A stretch of DNA of 10,302 nt from IMG/VR virus record IMGVR_UViG_2718217859_000003. One strand, 5' to 3'. Positions 1,379 to 8,959 of this stretch are shown here, piece by piece. A program made the translations under genes and the position numbers. Positions within the stretch are counted from its first letter, which is position 1, and each line of letters starts with the position of its first letter. Below the pieces are notes generated by a model, which ran no database searches, was not told the DNA's origin, and worked only from the letters and a program-made list of their open reading frames with translations. This DNA is from a virus. Its lineage: Duplodnaviria; Heunggongvirae; Uroviricota; Caudoviricetes.

Positions 1379-3268
1379 TCATAGTGAATCGGTACCGCCT
1401 GATTTGACCATACCGCGATAATCCAGAGCGGCCACACCAGCATCAATACGGACTTTCCAGGCCACACCGTCAACGATGAAACCTTCCTGCTGTTCAAGGT
1501 AAGGCTCGTCATTGCCATCAAGATAAGCCACCTCGATTGTGTCCGTTCCCTGTGCGGAAAGCATGTACCATTGTTTTTCGCTGATATCATCAAGGCGGGG
1601 ATCGACGATAATATCCAGTAGTTTGTGATACGGGTTAAAGATCCCGCTGTTTTTATCTGCCCCGAAAGGTGCGGTTGAGTTAATCATCTGCAACGCGCGA
1701 TCTTCCAGTGCTGCCGGAACTAAAAGGAATTTAGGCGCAATATTCAGCACTTCGCCATTTTTGTCCTTCTGTGTGCGCATCAGGTGACGTGCTGCACTAA
1801 GTCCCGGTGTTGTCAGTCCTGCTTCAATCAGGTTGCTGTGTTTTTTGTCAAACAGCGCTATTCCATCAGAAAGTTTTACGTTGCCTGTAAGCACCAGATT
1901 AACCAGATTTCCCACCGTTCTTGATGCTGCACGGCCCATAGCCATTGGCACCGTTGATAACTGATCAAGGTCATCATTGATTATCGCCTGGCGGGTAATG
2001 CTGAAAATATTCCCGTAAGTAGCCAGCGCGATGGGTTCACCGCGATCGCTGGTGGTGATGTATTTATATTCTGCCCCTTCCGGCACTTTGTTTAACGTAG
2101 AGAAACCATTCAGACCAACGCGGCGGGCTTCACGAAAGTTTGAAAGGGAACCTTTTTTCGTCCACTGGCGGAATGTTTCGCCGCTGTGCTCCCAGCCTGC
2201 AAGCACTGATTTTTCAGCACCACCAGCAAGGATATCGGTAAAATCGCTGCTGCTGTGGTTGAATGCCGCGTTTACTATCTGCGAGCGTGTTCCGTAGCTG
2301 CCCGTGCTTATACCACGATGGGTTAATGATGCCTGTGCCATATCGAAAAGGCTCATCATGGCGTAAGGATTACCGCGTTCGGCCCGTTCGTGACCAAGAC
2401 GCGCATTAAGCCCCTGGCGCATTGCATCGCCGGTTATGTTGCCGTTATCCGTGTACGCGTAGTAAAGATTTGCGGGGGTGGTTTTATTTGTTGGCGTTGA
2501 TTCTTTACCCATAGCGAGTAAAAGGCGTTCGCGTGCATTCTCAACGCTACATTCTGAATCAGCAAGACAACTTATAGCCAGGTCGTTATATCTTCCGTTG
2601 AACGTGCCAAACAATTCACGGATGCCGTTAAGTCGTTCCTGTTCGCCACTGCCAGTTTTCTGGCTGATCATGCTTTTAATTTTTTCCGGCATATTTGAAA
2701 AATCTCCGATTCGTTTTGATTCAATTCGGGCCATTGCTGTAATCGCGGGTATAACCTCATCTGCGAAGCCGTTAGCCTTACACTCATTGCCATCCATCCA
2801 GGTTTCCGCCTCCATCATGGCGGTGATTTCCTGTTTGCTCCTGCCCGTTCTTCCGGCGTAGGTTTCAGCCATCGTGTCGCCCAGCTTGTCCATCAGGTCA
2901 GCAAAGCGGCGAACGTCGCCCGACACTCCGGCAGTAACACCACGGGGGGCATGTATCATCATCATTGCGTTTTCAGGCATAACGATGTGATCGCCACACA
3001 TGGCAATAAACGAGGCCATAGAAGCCGCCATGCCTTCAATGTGTACAATTTTCTTTGCCGGATGATTTTTCAGGGCGTTATAGATAGCCAGCCCTTCAAA
3101 GATGTCGCCACCAGGTGAATGGATGCGAAGATGGATTTCAGACGCATTACCACACGCGTTGATCTCGTCAGTAAGTGCCGATGCTTTTACACCGTACCCG
3201 CCGATCTCGTCATAAATGCGCACATAGACAACATCTGCCATAGCCTTAATGGAAAACCATGTTTTCAT
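1379..3268 (-). CDS. Prohead protease (ClpP-like serine protease) fused to an HK97-fold major capsid protein, single 629-aa polypeptide
   Basis: Strong SD (AGGAG, 8 nt upstream of the ATG at 3268). N-terminal third carries ClpP-type motifs: IHSPGGDIFEGLAIYNAL, GMAASMASF (Ser) and MMMIHAP (His). The C-terminal segment FSITRQAIINDDLDQLS resembles the HK97 gp5 stretch ASRQVMDDAPMLQS as I recall it. Confidence 0.8.
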   Translation of the reverse strand: MKTWFSIKAMADVVYVRIYDEIGGYGVKASALTDEINACGNASEIHLRIHSPGGDIFEGLAIYNALKNHPAKKIVHIEGMAASMASFIAMCGDHIVMPENAMMMIHAPRGVTAGVSGDVRRFADLMDKLGDTMAETYAGRTGRSKQEITAMMEAETWMDGNECKANGFADEVIPAITAMARIESKRIGDFSNMPEKIKSMISQKTGSGEQERLNGIRELFGTFNGRYNDLAISCLADSECSVENARERLLLAMGKESTPTNKTTPANLYYAYTDNGNITGDAMRQGLNARLGHERAERGNPYAMMSLFDMAQASLTHRGISTGSYGTRSQIVNAAFNHSSSDFTDILAGGAEKSVLAGWEHSGETFRQWTKKGSLSNFREARRVGLNGFSTLNKVPEGAEYKYITTSDRGEPIALATYGNIFSITRQAIINDDLDQLSTVPMAMGRAASRTVGNLVNLVLTGNVKLSDGIALFDKKHSNLIEAGLTTPGLSAARHLMRTQKDKNGEVLNIAPKFLLVPAALEDRALQMINSTAPFGADKNSGIFNPYHKLLDIIVDPRLDDISEKQWYMLSAQGTDTIEVAYLDGNDEPYLEQQEGFIVDGVAWKVRIDAGVAALDYRGMVKSGGTDSL

Positions 3269-3697: not shown

Positions 3698-3914
3698 GTT
3701 TTTTTGTAAATGTTTTCGGGAACGCTCCAGTGATGAACAAAAAACAACCTGATTCGACACTAAAAATTTTTATTCCTCAATATATCAATAACTTATAGTG
3801 GTGGTGATGGTGCCATAAAAATCAAAAAATGCGCCTTTTTCCGCGCCCGCCCGCCCCGTGGACAGGCCCACCAAGCCAGGAGTACCTACAAAAAAGCCGG
3901 ATTGCTCCGGCTGT
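3698..3914. repeat. Direct repeat copy B (~220 bp, diverged) flanking the capsid module
   Basis: Same conserved blocks as copy A in the same order and orientation; identical 20-mer CCGCGCCCGCCCGCCCCGTG at 3841-3860. Confidence 0.8.
3890..3911 (-). terminator. Rho-independent terminator downstream of the 3931-4170 gene
   Basis: On the minus strand: GCCGGA-GCAA-TCCGGC followed by TTTTTT. It is positionally homologous to the hairpin in copy A but has a different stem sequence. Confidence 0.65.
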
Positions 3915-4447: not shown

Positions 4448-6253
4448 TTAATTTTTGCTATCGTCATTAGTGACCGATACACATGATGGCATCCAGTCTT
4501 CTGATTCCTCCTTCAGTGTCACGTTTGAACGCAAACCGTGCTTCGTTTTCCGTTTCATATACTCCCTGCCATATTCCGCCATTGCCCCCGGAATATCTTT
4601 ACCGAAGCGCGTCAGTGTTACAGGCTTACCGAATCCGTGTGCCCTCATATATGCCAGATAGGCGTGATAAAGATACCTGCGCGGACTGAACGGAATAATT
4701 TCGGCATTACCCACTAACAGACCATCACACATTACCGACGACATGAGATAGCCGCAGAAGTCCACCAGCGAATCGCCCTCGCGTTTTATCACCAGAGCTT
4801 CTTCTGATTTCTGCTGCTCATACAGCAAGCGTTTAGCTTCGTCCTGGTCAGAAAAACGAGTAAGCAGGTGGCGAATCACAACCGCCAGCTCTCCTTCTAT
4901 TTTTTCTGCCAGCATGGAGTCGCGTTCGTTTTCCGGTACAACCTCCGAAAAATTGAATATCACCCGACGACGTGAGATCCCCCCGCTGCGGTCACTGAAT
5001 GACATGGCGTTATTGTTCACCGCCAGCACGACCGCCTGAATGCGTGTTGAGTAGGGGGCTTTATGCTTCGGGTCGATTGCCACCTTGTCACCGCCTGTAA
5101 TGGCCTTAATTCCTGCGCCATCACCAGCGTAGCGGGTCATATCCGGCATGATAATCAGCGAAAAGCCAACCACTAACGCGCGTTCCCTGGCATCTTCCAG
5201 CGCCTTCATGCTTGCCGATACCGTGTTGGCCTTACCCGCCAGCATGGTGCAAATCTCCGCCATTACGCTTTTACCGCTCCCACCCGGCCCCGTTACCTCA
5301 AGAAATAACTGCCAGTCGTATCGGTTCGCCAGCACCATGAATAACGCCGCCAGTACGCGATCCGCTTTACGGTCATTCTCTGCCACCGAACGGCGCAACC
5401 ATTTCCAGAAATTCGGCGCATGCGTTGCCAGCGTTTCCCCCTCTGCTGGCGGGCTGAACGGTAATTCACTGGCAATTAACAGCCAGTCGTTTTTGTCATG
5501 CTCCCGAAAATCGCCTGTCCGGGTATCAAAAACACCGTTACTGAATCCAATCAGGTTACGGGCGGTATTCCCCATTACGGGCAAACTTAACTTCATGGTA
5601 TCGACCGCCGATTTGATGGCGTTCTGCGAATAACTAATCTCCGCATCAATAAAAATCTGCGCCATAGCCCGCTGTAACTCTTTATCCTGTACCGGCTCCC
5701 ATACAACGCCGTTGTAGTGGTGAACGGTGTCAGAGTCCGCATTGATTGCCAGTTCACCGCCATAACGTGCCAGGAGAACTTCGCCGCGCTGGCTTGCTCC
5801 CATCTGGTTAAGAGCCAGTGGTGCGGCGTTGTCTTCTGTTTTTTTCTTAACAGGAAGCTGAATAACCAGACCATCAGAAAGATTCTGGCGCTCACGGGCC
5901 AGATATTCGCGCCAGTTTTCCACCTCCTGACCGTGCATTCCCTCAGGGTAATATCTCGCATCCCGTACACCTGCCGCCGCCAGCTTTTGCCCGATGGCAT
6001 TAATATTTGACGGCTTGATGTGGCCTGCCTTGTACAGCCGGACATAATAGCGACCATCGTCGATAATTTTCAGGTCTGCCAGTTCATCAAGCTGGCTGTC
6101 TCCCAGCCATACAGGCGGGACGTTATCGCCAGCAAGTCGCCCGTCCTGTTCCTGCCATTGTTTCGCGTGCGCCCAGGCATCACTACCCGCAAAAATAATG
6201 ACTTCGGTCATTTTGTCGTGCGGCTGTTTTTTTAAGTTTGGTGCCAGTTTCAT
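4448..6253 (-). CDS. Replicative primase-helicase, P4 alpha-like (phage/plasmid primase with P-loop NTPase and C-terminal DNA-binding region)
   Basis: 601-aa ORF with SD-like AGGGG upstream. Walker A motif VTGPGGSGKSV in the middle; the N-terminal region fits a primase domain. Its position directly upstream of the cognate iterons matches P4 alpha and PICI pri-rep genes. Confidence 0.85.
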   Translation of the reverse strand: MKLAPNLKKQPHDKMTEVIIFAGSDAWAHAKQWQEQDGRLAGDNVPPVWLGDSQLDELADLKIIDDGRYYVRLYKAGHIKPSNINAIGQKLAAAGVRDARYYPEGMHGQEVENWREYLARERQNLSDGLVIQLPVKKKTEDNAAPLALNQMGASQRGEVLLARYGGELAINADSDTVHHYNGVVWEPVQDKELQRAMAQIFIDAEISYSQNAIKSAVDTMKLSLPVMGNTARNLIGFSNGVFDTRTGDFREHDKNDWLLIASELPFSPPAEGETLATHAPNFWKWLRRSVAENDRKADRVLAALFMVLANRYDWQLFLEVTGPGGSGKSVMAEICTMLAGKANTVSASMKALEDARERALVVGFSLIIMPDMTRYAGDGAGIKAITGGDKVAIDPKHKAPYSTRIQAVVLAVNNNAMSFSDRSGGISRRRVIFNFSEVVPENERDSMLAEKIEGELAVVIRHLLTRFSDQDEAKRLLYEQQKSEEALVIKREGDSLVDFCGYLMSSVMCDGLLVGNAEIIPFSPRRYLYHAYLAYMRAHGFGKPVTLTRFGKDIPGAMAEYGREYMKRKTKHGLRSNVTLKEESEDWMPSCVSVTNDDSKN

Positions 6254-6549
6254 TTTTTACCCCTGAATCCGTTAATCATGGTTTTCAGCTTCTGGATGTT
6301 TGCCCGTGCCCTGGCGTTGCTGGTGGGCACGTTATGCGGCGCGGTCTGTACCAGAGAAAAATCACGCCGGAACTGATAAACAGGCATCACGCAATCATAT
6401 TCGTAACCTTCACGGCGGTAAGTTACGCACCGTCCCGCCACGCCCTTAATCATTACCGTGCCGCCGTACTGGTCGCGGTAAATATCACCGCGCGTAATTT
6501 TAGGGTGAGTGTTGCCACTGGCAGTTAAGCTAGAATATTTAAGTTTCAT
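6250..6549 (-). CDS. Hypothetical protein, 99 aa, translationally coupled to the primase-helicase
   Basis: Its stop and the primase start overlap as ATGA at 6250-6253. Part of the leftward operon. Confidence 0.55.
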   Translation of the reverse strand: MKLKYSSLTASGNTHPKITRGDIYRDQYGGTVMIKGVAGRCVTYRREGYEYDCVMPVYQFRRDFSLVQTAPHNVPTSNARARANIQKLKTMINGFRGKK

Positions 6550-6555
6550 TATTTT

Positions 6556-6789
6556 TTATTCTCCGGTGTGCTGTTCTTTATATCTGTCGTGCAATTGGTC
6601 TATTTCTTGTAGCTCCATTATTACAGGCTCAAGAAGCGTTATTAATGATGTAATAATCCGCGTTTTTTTTGCATTACGTTCATTATCGCCAAAGGATTCA
6701 AGGCACATCCGCAATATTTCCATCATGTTTTCACTGTGAGAAAGTGCAAGTGATGCGCGGTCTATTGTTTCAAGATAAATATCACGCAT
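6556..6789 (-). CDS. Hypothetical protein, 77 aa
   Basis: ATG at 6789 with GGACGGGG SD-like sequence 7 nt upstream; 6-nt gap to the next gene. Confidence 0.5.
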   Translation of the reverse strand: MRDIYLETIDRASLALSHSENMMEILRMCLESFGDNERNAKKTRIITSLITLLEPVIMELQEIDQLHDRYKEQHTGE

Positions 6790-6813
6790 ATTAATCCCCG
6801 TCCGTTGTTTTTC

Positions 6814-7242
6814 TTAAAACAGCTTCGTCACGAAATCAGCATAGTTAGCGGCAATATCAAGAATATTTAGCCCTGTATCTCTGTGCTCATCAGTGCAAAG
6901 AAAGAAAAAAGCCACCCGCATAATTTCAGATATTGACGAAAGCGCATCAGCCGCATCATCAGGAACGCCGGAAAATTCCTGTTTCAGGGCATTAAAACGA
7001 TCATCACGCATAACCCCCCCATTTTCACAATCAGCAATCAGGATGGCTTTAGCCTCATTCAGTGCCATATCAGCGGTAAGCTGTGCGTAGGCCAGCGAAT
7101 GGGGGATTATTGCCCCTGTATATTCCGGCTCTCTGGTAATGTGTTTTTCTGCGGTTGCTGCCGTGCATGAAATATCAATCAGCGCATCCATCAGCGTTTT
7201 GATGGCTTCGGCGGCTGCGTCCGGACGGGGGTTATTGCACAT
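6814..7242 (-). CDS. Hypothetical protein, 142 aa
   Basis: ATG at 7242 with a strong AGGAGG SD 6 nt upstream; overlaps the end of the upstream 68-aa ORF by 11 nt. Confidence 0.6.
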   Translation of the reverse strand: MCNNPRPDAAAEAIKTLMDALIDISCTAATAEKHITREPEYTGAIIPHSLAYAQLTADMALNEAKAILIADCENGGVMRDDRFNALKQEFSGVPDDAADALSSISEIMRVAFFFLCTDEHRDTGLNILDIAANYADFVTKLF

Positions 7243-7438
7243 GGCGCACCTCCTGACGAATACGGGCGGCGAATACCATCACGCAGCCAGCCGGGGATTG
7301 CTGGCGGGCTTCCTGTTCGCTGGTGGCCTCGATGGTAATCACGCGCGGTTGTGCCGTGCTCAGGGCGATAAAACGCCAGATGTATTTATTCAGGTTGTGC
7401 GAATCCCGCCCTTGCGGGTGTGTGGTATGATTTCTCAT
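7232..7438 (-). CDS. Hypothetical protein, 68 aa, first gene of the leftward replication operon
   Basis: This is the C-terminal part of the 367-aa track ORF, starting at its first plausible ATG (7438), which has a GAGG SD. The rest of that long ORF crosses the control region and is rejected. Confidence 0.45.
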   Translation of the reverse strand: MRNHTTHPQGRDSHNLNKYIWRFIALSTAQPRVITIEATSEQEARQQSPAGCVMVFAARIRQEVRHVQ

Positions 7439-7522
7439 AGCTGCCTCGATACTCTTTCTATCGTTGGTGGTTAGACGCCCTGCATGTGTGCCACCACTGC
7501 GGGGCGTTGCGTTTTTTGATGC

Positions 7523-7579
7523 ACACGTGTTAAGGTGTACACCTACAAAGCAAAAACATAACGCCATAGGTGTACACAT
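7523..7579. promoter_or_regulatory. Divergent control region with palindromic operators
   Basis: ACACGTGT at 7523-7530; perfect 12-bp palindrome AGGTGTACACCT at 7533-7544; near-copy AGGTGTACACAT at 7568-7579 overlapping the SD and start of the RHH gene. Confidence 0.55.
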
Positions 7580-7772
7580 GTCAACAGTTATTAAGCGCGA
7601 TAAAAAACAAAAAGGCACAGGAAAGACCCCACCGTTCCATATGCGTATAGTTCCTGAATTGAAGGAGCAGTTTGATAACGAAGCCAGTAACGATGGAGTA
7701 AGTCTTGCCAACTGGCTTAAAGAGTTGGGGCGCGCCGAACTAAAGCGACGCGGCATTGAACCTAAAGGCTGA
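7578..7772 (+). CDS. Ribbon-helix-helix (Arc/CopG-like) DNA-binding protein, 64 aa
   Basis: ATG at 7578 with an AGGTG SD. The segment FHMRIVPELKEQFDNEAS...SLANWLKELGRAEL fits a strand-helix-helix pattern. The track's longer version starts at a TTG inside the control region and is unlikely. Confidence 0.55.
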   Translation: MSTVIKRDKKQKGTGKTPPFHMRIVPELKEQFDNEASNDGVSLANWLKELGRAELKRRGIEPKG

Positions 7773-7775
7773 TGT

Positions 7776-7895
7776 ATGACCGATAACAAACTTTCTCTAA
7801 CAGAGAATAAACCATCAGGCTTCTTACCAAGAAAAATCCTTGATGAGATCAAACGCCGCCAGCGTAAAAAATCCAAAGGAGCAGACACGGAATAG
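7776..7895 (+). CDS. Micro-ORF, 39 aa, basic C-terminus (not in the ORF track)
   Basis: Translated by hand as MTDNKLSLTENKPSGFLPRKILDEIKRRQRKKSKGADTE. The ATG is 3 nt after the RHH stop, with a weak AAGG SD. Confidence 0.3.
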   Translation: MTDNKLSLTENKPSGFLPRKILDEIKRRQRKKSKGADTE

Positions 7896-7898
7896 CTT

Positions 7899-8063
7899 AT
7901 GCAACAAATACCATACTGGCTTGGCTCTCTGTTTGTATTTGCATTTCTCATGAAATATTGCATTAGCAATGAACTTGTCGGTAATGAAAGTGCATGCGCG
8001 AGCGCTGAAAAAAATATTCCACTTCTCGTATATGAAAACGAAAGCCCTGTGAACCGCAATTGA
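7899..8063 (+). CDS. Micro-ORF, 54 aa, with hydrophobic N-terminal segment (not in the ORF track)
   Basis: Translated by hand as MQQIPYWLGSLFVFAFLMKYCISNELVGNESACASAEKNIPLLVYENESPVNRN. The ATG is 3 nt after the 39-aa stop; the region is AT-rich. Confidence 0.3.
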   Translation: MQQIPYWLGSLFVFAFLMKYCISNELVGNESACASAEKNIPLLVYENESPVNRN

Positions 8064-8159
8064 GCGAAATTTAATGAATTCACTCTTTGCCCACCAGCCG
8101 CAAATGTGGCATTGTTGGCGATGCTCATGCGTTGGGGATAACGTGTAGCTTGTGTCGAA

Positions 8160-8188
8160 GGGCCATCGTGACAGGTGGCCTTTTCTTT
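8160..8188 (+). terminator. Candidate rho-independent terminator for the rightward micro-operon
   Basis: GGGCCA, a 10-nt loop, then TGGCCT (one GU pair), followed by TTTTCTTT. Confidence 0.4.
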
Positions 8189-8226
8189 ACCTGTTATCTG
8201 GCAATTGTGGCGCTTCGTCACACGGT

Positions 8227-8235
8227 TGATATAAT
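8227..8235 (+). promoter_or_regulatory. Candidate extended -10 promoter (TGaTATAAT)
   Basis: Perfect TATAAT at 8230-8235 with TG at 8227-8228; a weak -35-like TTGTGG at 8205-8210. Oriented toward the 3' end of alpA. Confidence 0.3.
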
Positions 8236-8284
8236 TCCCCTGCACTGATCCATTTTTTTCGCAGCAGGTTAATTGTTCGCAAGG

Positions 8285-8309
8285 GCGCTCCGGCAACGGG
8301 GCGCTTTTT
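8285..8309 (+). terminator. Rho-independent terminator with GNRA tetraloop
   Basis: GCGCTCCG-GCAA-CGGGGCGC (8-bp stem including one GU pair) followed by TTTTT. Strand-specific: there is no U-run on the minus strand. Confidence 0.6.
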
Positions 8310-8339
8310 GTTATGTTCATCACGTTACGCCTCACACCA

Positions 8340-8546
8340 TTACGCAGCCGTTCCGCGCGCTTCTTCCTCGCGCTCTTTCAGCCAGGCCAGCACTTCATCT
8401 TCATACCAGCCAACACGACGCAGACCGATTTTGAAGCCTTTCGGAAATTTTCCGGCGTTGATCATGTCCTGTAGCGAACTGTCTGCCTTGATGCGCAGAA
8501 TATTTTTTACTTCCTGACGGGTAAGAATTTTTCTGATTGTTTCCAC
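8340..8546 (-). CDS. alpA: AlpA-family phage transcriptional regulator / excisionase-like HTH protein
   Basis: 68 aa, GTG start with AGGT SD. The pattern FPKGFKIGLRRVGWYEDEVLAWL matches the AlpA core I recall. Small regulator near the integrase, as in P4-like elements and Gram-negative PICIs. Confidence 0.8.
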   Translation of the reverse strand: METIRKILTRQEVKNILRIKADSSLQDMINAGKFPKGFKIGLRRVGWYEDEVLAWLKEREEEARGTAA

Positions 8547-8716: not shown

Positions 8717-8959
8717 TTACCGTTTCCACTTCTTAGGTCGCCCACCGCATTTAAGGCTGGTGGGCCTCAGCACCTTGTCGATGCTTTCAGCCAGATTTTT
8801 CGATGCGCCACGCGAGCGCAAAAAACTGACTACCTCGTGTTTTGTGGGGGCAGTTGATTTGTCTTCCGGATCGTACGTTGACCAGAATTCACGATTTGCC
8901 ATTAAGGCCAACTGAAGGCCTTCACCATAGGCAGGGGATACCTTTTCATTGAAAAACAC
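8717..8959 (-). CDS. Hypothetical small basic protein, 80 aa, GTG start, between integrase and alpA
   Basis: Perfect AAGGAG SD 8 nt upstream of the GTG at 8959. The basic C-terminus (GGRPKKWKR) suggests nucleic-acid binding. Its own terminator implies co-transcription with int. Confidence 0.5.
   Translation of the reverse strand: MFFNEKVSPAYGEGLQLALMANREFWSTYDPEDKSTAPTKHEVVSFLRSRGASKNLAESIDKVLRPTSLKCGGRPKKWKR

Follow-up and report, generated by a model that had tools for sequence, protein, structure and literature searches.

What do the small genes that lead into the replicase gene of a phage-inducible chromosomal island encode, and what might they contribute to the element? We addressed this question in IMG/VR record IMGVR_UViG_2718217859_000003, a 10,302-nt stretch of DNA that we analysed as a whole and refer to as the window. 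Four small genes on its minus strand, numbered 1 to 4 in the order in which they are read, occupy positions 6250-7438 and precede a replicase gene. A first-pass annotation of the same DNA had likened this layout to the early operon of P4, had recognised no motif in any of the four products and had suggested a role in derepressing or interfering with a helper phage. Judged from its gene content, the window reads as a whole island of ~10 kb that belongs to the EcCICFT073 family of Gram-negative phage-inducible chromosomal islands (PICIs), and not as a P4-like satellite. It carries the PICI hallmarks of a ~10 kb length, int, alpA, a replicase gene (pri-rep) and capsid genes, and it has no lysis or tail genes.

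The reading that we favour, with modest confidence, places the four genes at the head of the early (replication) operon of this island. In this operon an effector of the Icd type that arrests the host, an accessory slot of variable content and a block of replication accessories would be coupled to the replicase, under the control of a local repressor and of read-through from alpA. It is an ordinary but uncharacterised module of a known element. Parts of the 1189-nt four-gene module were found in 1825 of 5426 complete E. coli genomes, and at least 80% of it in 695 of them; its genes are thus present in about a third of complete E. coli genomes, as well as in the best-studied Gram-negative PICI.

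Four small genes and the replicase that follows them

Gene 1 (7232..7438, minus strand) encodes a basic, Icd-like protein of 68 residues (isoelectric point, pI, 10.7) in a short, "Kil-like" form. Gene 2 (6814..7242, minus) encodes an acidic orphan of 142 residues (pI 4.4, net charge -12) with two modules, here called 142N and 142C, and gene 3 (6556..6789, minus) an acidic, helical orphan of 77 residues (pI 5.0, net charge -6) that lies directly upstream of the DUF4222 gene. That gene, gene 4 (6250..6549, minus), encodes a basic protein of 99 residues (pI 10.2, net charge +11.6) and is followed by the replicase gene (4448..6253, minus), whose 601-residue product has D5_N, DUF5906 and Pox_D5 domains. 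Genes 1 and 2 overlap by 11 nt (7232-7242), genes 2 and 3 are separated by 24 nt (6790-6813), genes 3 and 4 are separated by 6 nt (6550-6555), and gene 4 overlaps the replicase gene by the 4-nt ATGA (6250-6253). The list of open reading frames (ORFs) and the sequence agree exactly with the sizes, overlaps and gaps first claimed for four small minus-strand genes before the primase, and the junctions bear out their description as a tightly packed unit ahead of the replicase. An E. coli database protein of 219 residues (P0067) joins the Icd-like protein and the 142-residue family in one frame, presumably through a frameshift in the 11-nt overlap.

The 24-nt gap between genes 2 and 3 is secondary, because a 1-nt deletion near the 3' end of gene 2 (6790-6830, minus strand) truncated the gene and removed the usual tail of the protein, which ends in TEAVLRKTTDGD before the stop codon. 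The lost tail can be read in another frame, where it ends 1 nt before the ATG of gene 3, and in relatives gene 2 stops 1 nt ahead of the next ATG. The genes had also been credited with strong Shine-Dalgarno sequences. This description fits gene 2 (AGGAGGTG, duplex energy -11.6 kcal/mol) and does not fit the others, which have moderate purine motifs of -5.9 to -6.6 kcal/mol; the yardstick was all ATGs on that strand, with a median of -3.0 and a 10th percentile of -6.9 kcal/mol.

For each gene we compared codons with 22-46 distinct homologous sequences from related islands and calculated the ratio of nonsynonymous to synonymous polymorphism (pN/pS). In the annotated frames pN/pS was 0.18 for gene 1, 0.40 for gene 2, 0.32 for gene 3 and 0.42 for gene 4, and in the remaining two same-strand frames it ranged from 0.8 to 3.0. 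Because the annotated frames show purifying selection and the other frames do not, the four ORFs are not chance frames: all four small genes are real and under purifying selection.

We surveyed 80 IMG/VR loci with a DUF4222 alignment, 75 of which have enough upstream DNA, together with a second, more divergent set. The order alpA, Icd-like gene, zero to three variable genes, 77-residue gene, DUF4222 and replicase recurred, also in the divergent set, and the minimal operon consists of the Icd-like gene, the 77-residue gene, DUF4222 and the replicase. All 75 loci with enough upstream DNA have an Icd-like ORF on the same strand ahead of DUF4222, and the gene 3 family stands directly before DUF4222 in 71 of them (about 95%), as well as being found in 15 of the 17 loci with upstream DNA in the divergent set. 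Three of the four small genes are thus a conserved core, and gene 2 is a variable fusion. The possibility, raised at the outset, that the ORFs would not be conserved across related islands does not hold. Searches of GenBank phages by tblastn with DUF4222 and with the Icd-like protein gave one weak match each; the two records are small (8.6 and 16.5 kb) and may be satellites in their own right. A scan of genome contigs with single-protein patterns, which are strict, yielded two loci.

Two of the four proteins belong to recognisable families, so that the initial view of four products without a motif applies only to genes 2 and 3, which have no informative family. Gene 1 matches NCBIfam NF033153 (Icd-like host cell division inhibitor) with 69.8 bits against a cutoff of 25 (E=1.5e-19) over the full 48-position profile, and falls in the PHROG families phrog_6196 and phrog_1743. 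The NF033153 family takes its name from P1 Icd. In P4 the ORF just upstream of epsilon (C-terminal eta) carries the NF033153 domain as well (E=8e-21), behind an Ash domain. The suggested comparison of these genes with Icd-like and Kil proteins is therefore apt for gene 1, which is an NF033153 protein like the C-terminus of eta and is a short in-frame form with its own ATG. The comparison with the Ash family does not carry over, as none of the four proteins belongs to it in the Pfam search. The start of gene 1 consists of its own ATG and a GAGG motif, and the 78 nt before this ATG lack coding constraint (pN/pS 0.84). By analogy with P1 Icd and P4 Kil/Eta, the gene 1 protein would block cell division or kill the cell once the island is switched on.

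Gene 4 matches Pfam DUF4222 (PF13973) with 84.1 bits against a cutoff of 27, its residues 16-68 covering the whole 53-position profile. The protein is predicted from its structure model to be a basic SH3/Tudor-like barrel, always placed directly upstream of a replicase; a fold search with the DUF4222 model returned generic small-barrel matches only. DUF4222 and P4 ORF151, which are syntenic, have the pattern G[DE]IYR...RR.FS[LI] in common, a weak similarity in every comparison (blastp E=0.5, hmmsearch E=0.33, hhalign probability 15%), and P4 ORF151 has no Pfam match. Gene 3 falls in phrog_2196 and has no relatives in Pfam, NCBIfam, PADLOC or the PDB.

The N-terminal 312 residues of P4 alpha hold the primase. 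The replicase of the window is 50% identical to residues 313-771 of P4 alpha (459 residues) and lacks these N-terminal 312 residues; instead it begins with a domain of ~130 residues of unassigned function (residues 1-133). Three types of replicase follow DUF4222 among the islands: a RepA/AAA-like type of 465-471 residues, the P4-alpha/D5-like type of 582-604 residues found in the window and a 711-residue type. In one E. coli genome the NCBI annotation pipeline (PGAP) names a "DUF927 domain-containing protein" downstream of DUF4222, a name with no one-to-one match to the 711-residue loci. Because the three replicase types have only their first ~130 residues in common, the conserved block consists of the 77-residue gene, DUF4222 and the replicase N-terminal domain. 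Sequence searches of PDB chains with the four small proteins and this N-terminal domain gave nothing better than E=0.44. The 77-residue protein and DUF4222 would most likely assist the initiation of replication or act as regulators of the replicase, in a position comparable to that of Cnr, immediately ahead of P4 alpha. No protein of the window matched the Cnr family itself (PF17345).

The variable slot and its poly-G tract

The two modules of the gene 2 protein, 142N (residues 1-77) and 142C (residues 78-142), are separate genes in many islands. The PHROG matches follow this division, with phrog_2512 on the whole protein, phrog_5146 on the N half and phrog_24341 on the C half, and homologues in a library of 1.84 billion proteins match either residues 1-77 or residues 78-141. 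In CFT073, 142N and 142C are two 73-residue genes, the second of which begins at a methionine equivalent to residue 78. The C half is the most divergent part of the protein. An AlphaFold2 model of gene 2 has two helical hairpins and a disordered linker (mean pLDDT 62), and a fold search of BFVD with this model gave nothing better than E=1.7. The relatives of gene 2 form 49 clusters in the 1.84 billion proteins, none of them with an informative Pfam domain. Among the matches listed from a collection of 5.8 billion proteins, nearly all homologues of genes 2 and 3 are named Escherichia coli.

The junction of 142N and 142C is marked by a poly-G tract (7014..7020, minus strand; C7 on the plus strand), the length of which decides between a fused ORF and two genes. 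Across 54 related loci the tract is G7 in 15, G8 in 23, G9 in 13, G10 in two and G11 in one; G7 and G10 give one fused ORF, and G8, G9 and G11 give two genes. Of 10 groups of loci that are identical over the 240-nt flanks, six vary in tract length, and the poly-G therefore changes faster than point substitutions accumulate. The gene content around the tract is variable as well: the slot between the Icd-like gene and the 77-residue gene holds zero to three genes from about six families, and the closest island, with 98% identical flanks, has different middle genes. We infer that gene 2 may occupy an exchangeable accessory slot with a fast-evolving, acidic two-module protein whose fused or split state would be set by the slippage-prone poly-G. 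Its product is probably a protein-binding modulator aimed at a variable partner in a phage or the host.

P4 Epsilon binds the P2 C repressor. An equivalent task in the window, in which one or more small acidic proteins and gene 2 above all would bind a repressor or regulator of the helper and so form a derepression or manipulation module, seems to us quite unlikely. Gene 2 does follow the Icd-like ORF directly, as epsilon does in P4, and the two have a weak local similarity (24 columns, 42% identity, hhalign probability 22%). The fast-evolving C half and the variable gene content are also what would be expected of a partner-specific binder. However, the Epsilon family PF25738 was matched neither by any of the four proteins (E<=0.1) nor by 33 relatives of gene 2 (E<=0.001), so that the proposed comparison with Epsilon failed at the family level; as controls, P4 epsilon matched PF25738 at E=9e-51 and P4 ORF106 (Cnr) matched PF17345 (DUF5375) at E=3e-63. 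Moreover, minimal islands lack gene 2, and induction in this PICI family runs in the opposite direction, with the helper switching on alpA (PMC6092414). The broader idea of a helper-derepression or interference role found no support either, as the interference of EcCICFT073 with lambda maps to rppA, downstream of the replicase. In that work the genes cloned and tested for interference were those after ori, a set that leaves out the small genes upstream of pri (PMC6739421).

The composition of genes 2 and 3 suggests a further alternative, namely that their products, made soon after entry into a new cell, mimic DNA or inhibit restriction or RecBCD. Strongly acidic helical proteins (pI 4.4 and 5.0, charge -12 and -6) encoded early in an operon would suit such an anti-defence function, but neither protein resembles Ocr, ArdA, Gam or any annotated family. 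The structure model of gene 2 is of low confidence, and gene 3 is tightly conserved beside the replication genes instead of lying in the variable hotspot. We consider this explanation very unlikely.

A comparable operon has been connected with cell death. In strain ECOR61, a phage accessory protein triggers cell death, which was suppressed by Tn5 insertions in an Icd-like gene and the next two overlapping small genes; reconstitution took the complete set of six linked genes, the primase gene among them, and removal of the Icd-like gene abolished the effect (bioRxiv 10.1101/2023.04.06.535777). In the same screen the hits in a P4 prophage were the integrase, alpA, the Icd-like gene (eta), a hypothetical gene and the primase (bioRxiv 10.1101/2023.04.06.535777). 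These results raise the possibility of an abortive-infection or programmed-cell-death module, in which the variable small proteins act as sensors of phage proteins and the Icd-like protein as the agent that kills the cell or arrests it. The suppressor insertions, the six-gene requirement and the dependence on Icd in ECOR61 all favour it, as does the need for alpA, eta and the primase in P4, and a variable slot that can be switched by a poly-G tract would fit an arms race.

Against a dedicated cell-death module, eight proteins of the region had no match in PADLOC-DB 2.0 at E<=0.1, and the small genes of ECOR61 appear to be of other families. Overexpression of alpA leads to runaway replication of the island, which harms the cell (PMC6092414). 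As this is a known lethal side effect, an ECOR61-type phenotype may reflect satellite induction and not dedicated defence. We judge a cell-death module to be unlikely. The link to ECOR61 suggests that some "defence" phenotypes may have their origin in the early operons of satellites.

The ECOR61 system (Silas et al., bioRxiv 2023) is like the operon of the window in its Icd-like gene, overlapping small genes and primase among six linked genes. Two loci of the DUF4222 island family (L024 and L006) match it in gene sizes (186 and 192 nt) and in overlaps (8 and 1 nt). Unlike in the window, its two small genes seem to belong to the F5 family and to a 63-residue family and not to 142N and 142C.

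The control region upstream of gene 1

The region between alpA and gene 1 offers two possible routes of expression. The first would be the operon's own sigma-70-type promoter, read leftward. The best match to a sigma-70 promoter in the region scanned (7555..7584, minus strand; TTGACA, an 18-nt spacer and TATGTT) agrees with 10 of 12 consensus positions, as a consensus match only, and points into gene 1. Two copies of the palindrome AGGTGTACAC(CT) (7533..7577), candidate operators, lie on either side of its -10 element; six matches were found against 1.4 expected. Other islands have different perfect palindromes, in two to three copies, at an equal distance from the ATG of the Icd-like gene. 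Next to these repeats, a divergent gene of the ribbon-helix-helix (RHH) type (Arc/YlcI-like; 7578..7772, plus strand; 64 residues) matches the Arc-like repressor family phrog_228 (E=8e-6) and has a pN/pS of 0.17 in its own frame; in other islands the gene at this position is annotated as a member of the YlcI/YnfO family. The RHH gene and the palindromes are a candidate repressor and operator pair, with the palindromes probably bound by the RHH protein, and the islands look like a set with different specificities. A 2018 paper on PICIs called the repressor of the Gram-negative islands unclear, and the RHH gene with its island-specific palindromes is a candidate for it.

The second route would be read-through from the promoter of alpA (8340..8546, minus strand; PF05930; pN/pS 0.30). 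AlpA is the helper-induced activator of EcCICFT073 and activates its own promoter, and a reporter in the gene after alpA (ORF3) depends on alpA for expression (PMC6092414). A long open frame in the frame of gene 1 (7232..8335, minus strand; 367 codons from a GTG at 8335) opens 37 nt before the end of alpA, and its first start, the GTG at 8335, lies 4 nt past the alpA stop. Among the 64 related loci in which alpA was mapped, 29 have this frame open over the whole interval from alpA to the Icd-like gene, with intervals of 504-1486 nt. It is the positional analogue of P4 eta, a long ORF that is coupled to an alpA homologue and whose translation prevents premature termination, with Kil as a shorter in-frame form (PMC10111431). 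By analogy with eta, the long frame looks like a translated leader, along which transcription from the helper-induced alpA promoter would reach gene 1.

A folded protein encoded by the 367-codon ORF was considered and rejected for the window, given its lack of domains, an odd composition rich in Cys, Ser, Leu and Arg, a pN/pS of ~0.8 in the conserved block and its relation to the RHH gene. The frame runs antisense through that gene, and its middle third is the mirror frame of it. The 299-residue extension ahead of gene 1 has no domain or PHROG match and contains neither Ash nor Bro-N. Where it crosses a conserved 225-nt block, pN/pS was 0.66-0.83 in all six frames, without amino-acid constraint, and the long frame is stop-free in 11 of 13 variants of this block.

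In some relatives the long ORF begins with a true Bro-N (L053) or Ash (L014) domain. Such domains in the gene 1 frame, set beside the extension of the window with its absence of domain matches, would suit the view that a longer Bro/Ash-Icd gene is decaying and that gene 1 is its remnant, and PGAP labels its homologue in the closest genome "incomplete; missing N-terminus". Yet the selection on gene 1 is the strongest of the genes tested except for the RHH gene, the gene has a start codon and a ribosome-binding motif of its own, and PGAP annotates the 68-residue form as intact in another genome. Decay of gene 1 strikes us as highly improbable.

The start of the long frame lies opposite a noncoding block (8087-8316, plus strand) that is 89-96% conserved in 26 loci, including CFT073. 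The plus strand of this block contains a terminator with compensating stem variants (8160-8188), an invariant extended -10 element TGATATAAT (8227-8235) and, about 50 nt past TGATATAAT, a second terminator (8281-8316). This array suggests a candidate antisense RNA of ~75 nt opposite the start of the long frame. The window gave no Rfam match at E<=1 and thus no C4 or CI RNA, and the candidate RNA belongs to no Rfam family. Four sister islands (L034, L014, L046 and L025) have a C4 RNA (RF01695, 72-78 bits) and isrK or c4-a1b1 directly upstream of the Icd-like domain (for example, L034:3888-4073). Some of the sister islands with a C4 RNA carry two Icd-like domains in one frame, and CFT073 is without these RNAs.

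These elements can be assembled into a more elaborate proposal, which we offer as a speculation with little likelihood. The slot between the Icd-like and 77-residue genes would be a phase-variable specificity module, in which the fused/split switch of the poly-G chooses the phage or host signal that releases the Icd-like effector and the replication of the island, and the early operon would serve in addition as a tunable system of cell arrest triggered by phages. Silencing would fall to the RHH repressor with its island-specific operators and to a cis-antisense RNA opposite a translated but unconserved leader, standing where the C4 or CI RNA sits in P1, P4 and the sister islands.

Several observations weigh against reading the four genes as the front of an early operon with an arrest effector, an accessory slot and a replication block. 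For genes 2 and 3, Pfam, NCBIfam, PADLOC, the PDB and BFVD offer no informative homologue, and promoter-like matches occur in the region at the rate expected by chance (6 found, 5.9 expected). The link of gene 1 to P1 Icd follows the name of NF033153. The variation in poly-G length could partly represent homopolymer sequencing errors. The small genes of ECOR61 are likened to those of the islands by size and overlap, and Tn5 insertions in an operon are polar. Additionally, variants of the 77-residue protein do not co-vary with replicase type, so that a physical link of this protein to the helicase part is unsupported, and DUF4222 could lie next to the shared N-terminal domain simply because of how the recombination blocks are arranged.

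Even with these points in view, we prefer the early replication operon as the account of the four genes. It resolves the module into three parts, an Icd-type effector, a block made up of the 77-residue gene, DUF4222 and the replicase N-terminal domain, and an exchangeable, poly-G-switched slot. In the literature cited here we found no description of the poly-G switch between fused and split genes, the palindromes next to the RHH gene that differ from island to island, the candidate antisense RNA or the N-terminal domain that the replicases share.

Comparison with EcCICFT073, P4, P1 and contingency loci

The closest E. coli chromosome is 98% identical to the window over 76% of its length. Its island lies at tRNA-Pro, between yejO and yejM, and is annotated with an integrase, an AlpA-type regulator, a primase-family protein, a ClpP-protease/major-capsid fusion and PerC. 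In the window the fusion ORF, a ClpP-like prohead protease joined to a major capsid protein (the PGAP name in the closest genome), occupies 1379-3268 (minus strand, 629 residues), the PerC-family regulator lies at the far end of the island (1-372, minus), and a basic 80-residue ORF without a family match lies between int and alpA (8717-8959, minus). Two related, unannotated stretches at ~1159-1355 and 3785-3894 are ~87% identical to lambdoid Stx-converting phages. They fit, and are probably, the two cos sites described for EcCICFT073 (PMC6739421).

EcCICFT073, for which induction and transfer by a helper phage have been demonstrated (PMC6092414), has the same parts as the window, in the same order: int, alpA, a divergent YlcI/RHH gene, an Icd-like gene, small genes, DUF4222, an ATGA-coupled replicase, perC, capsid genes and two cos-like sites. 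Protein identity between the two is 89% for DUF4222, 77% for the 77-residue protein, 72% for 142C and 47% for 142N, and the noncoding block after alpA is common to both (89%). Unlike the window, EcCICFT073 has an extra 76-residue gene after Icd and separate 142N and 142C genes (G8 tract), and its late region has a capsid gene and a decoration gene in place of the ClpP-capsid fusion.

The resemblance to the P4 early operon holds by homology at the ends, that is, for AlpA/Vis, the Icd-like domain and the alpha helicase, but no homology was detected for the middle genes. P4 Vis (ORF88) and AlpA of the window fall in the same PHROG families. In the left operon of P4 (vis, eta/kil with the CI RNA, epsilon, orf151, cnr and alpha), as in the window, an AlpA/Vis homologue is followed by a long ORF that starts at the end of the alpA/vis homologue, closes with an Icd-like domain and has a short form nested within it, and small genes then lead to an alpha-type helicase. 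In contrast, the C4/CI RNA, the Ash domain, Epsilon (PF25738), Cnr (PF17345) and the N-terminal 312 residues of alpha set P4 apart from the window, whose late genes and packaging are of the PICI/cos type.

The immI operon of P1 (c4 antisense RNA, icd and ant) can be likened to the window by arrangement and family name, an Icd-family ORF being the first gene behind an immunity switch. With the sister islands P1 has in common a C4 RNA with its targets directly upstream of Icd. The window differs in having an RHH gene and palindromic repeats at this place, and no antirepressor gene follows.

Finally, the G7-G11 tract of gene 2 recalls the homopolymer contingency loci of phase-variable genes in that it changes faster than its flanks and shifts the reading frame. 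Unlike those loci, it does not toggle between ON and OFF; it toggles between one fused and two separate proteins, and both modules stay translatable.

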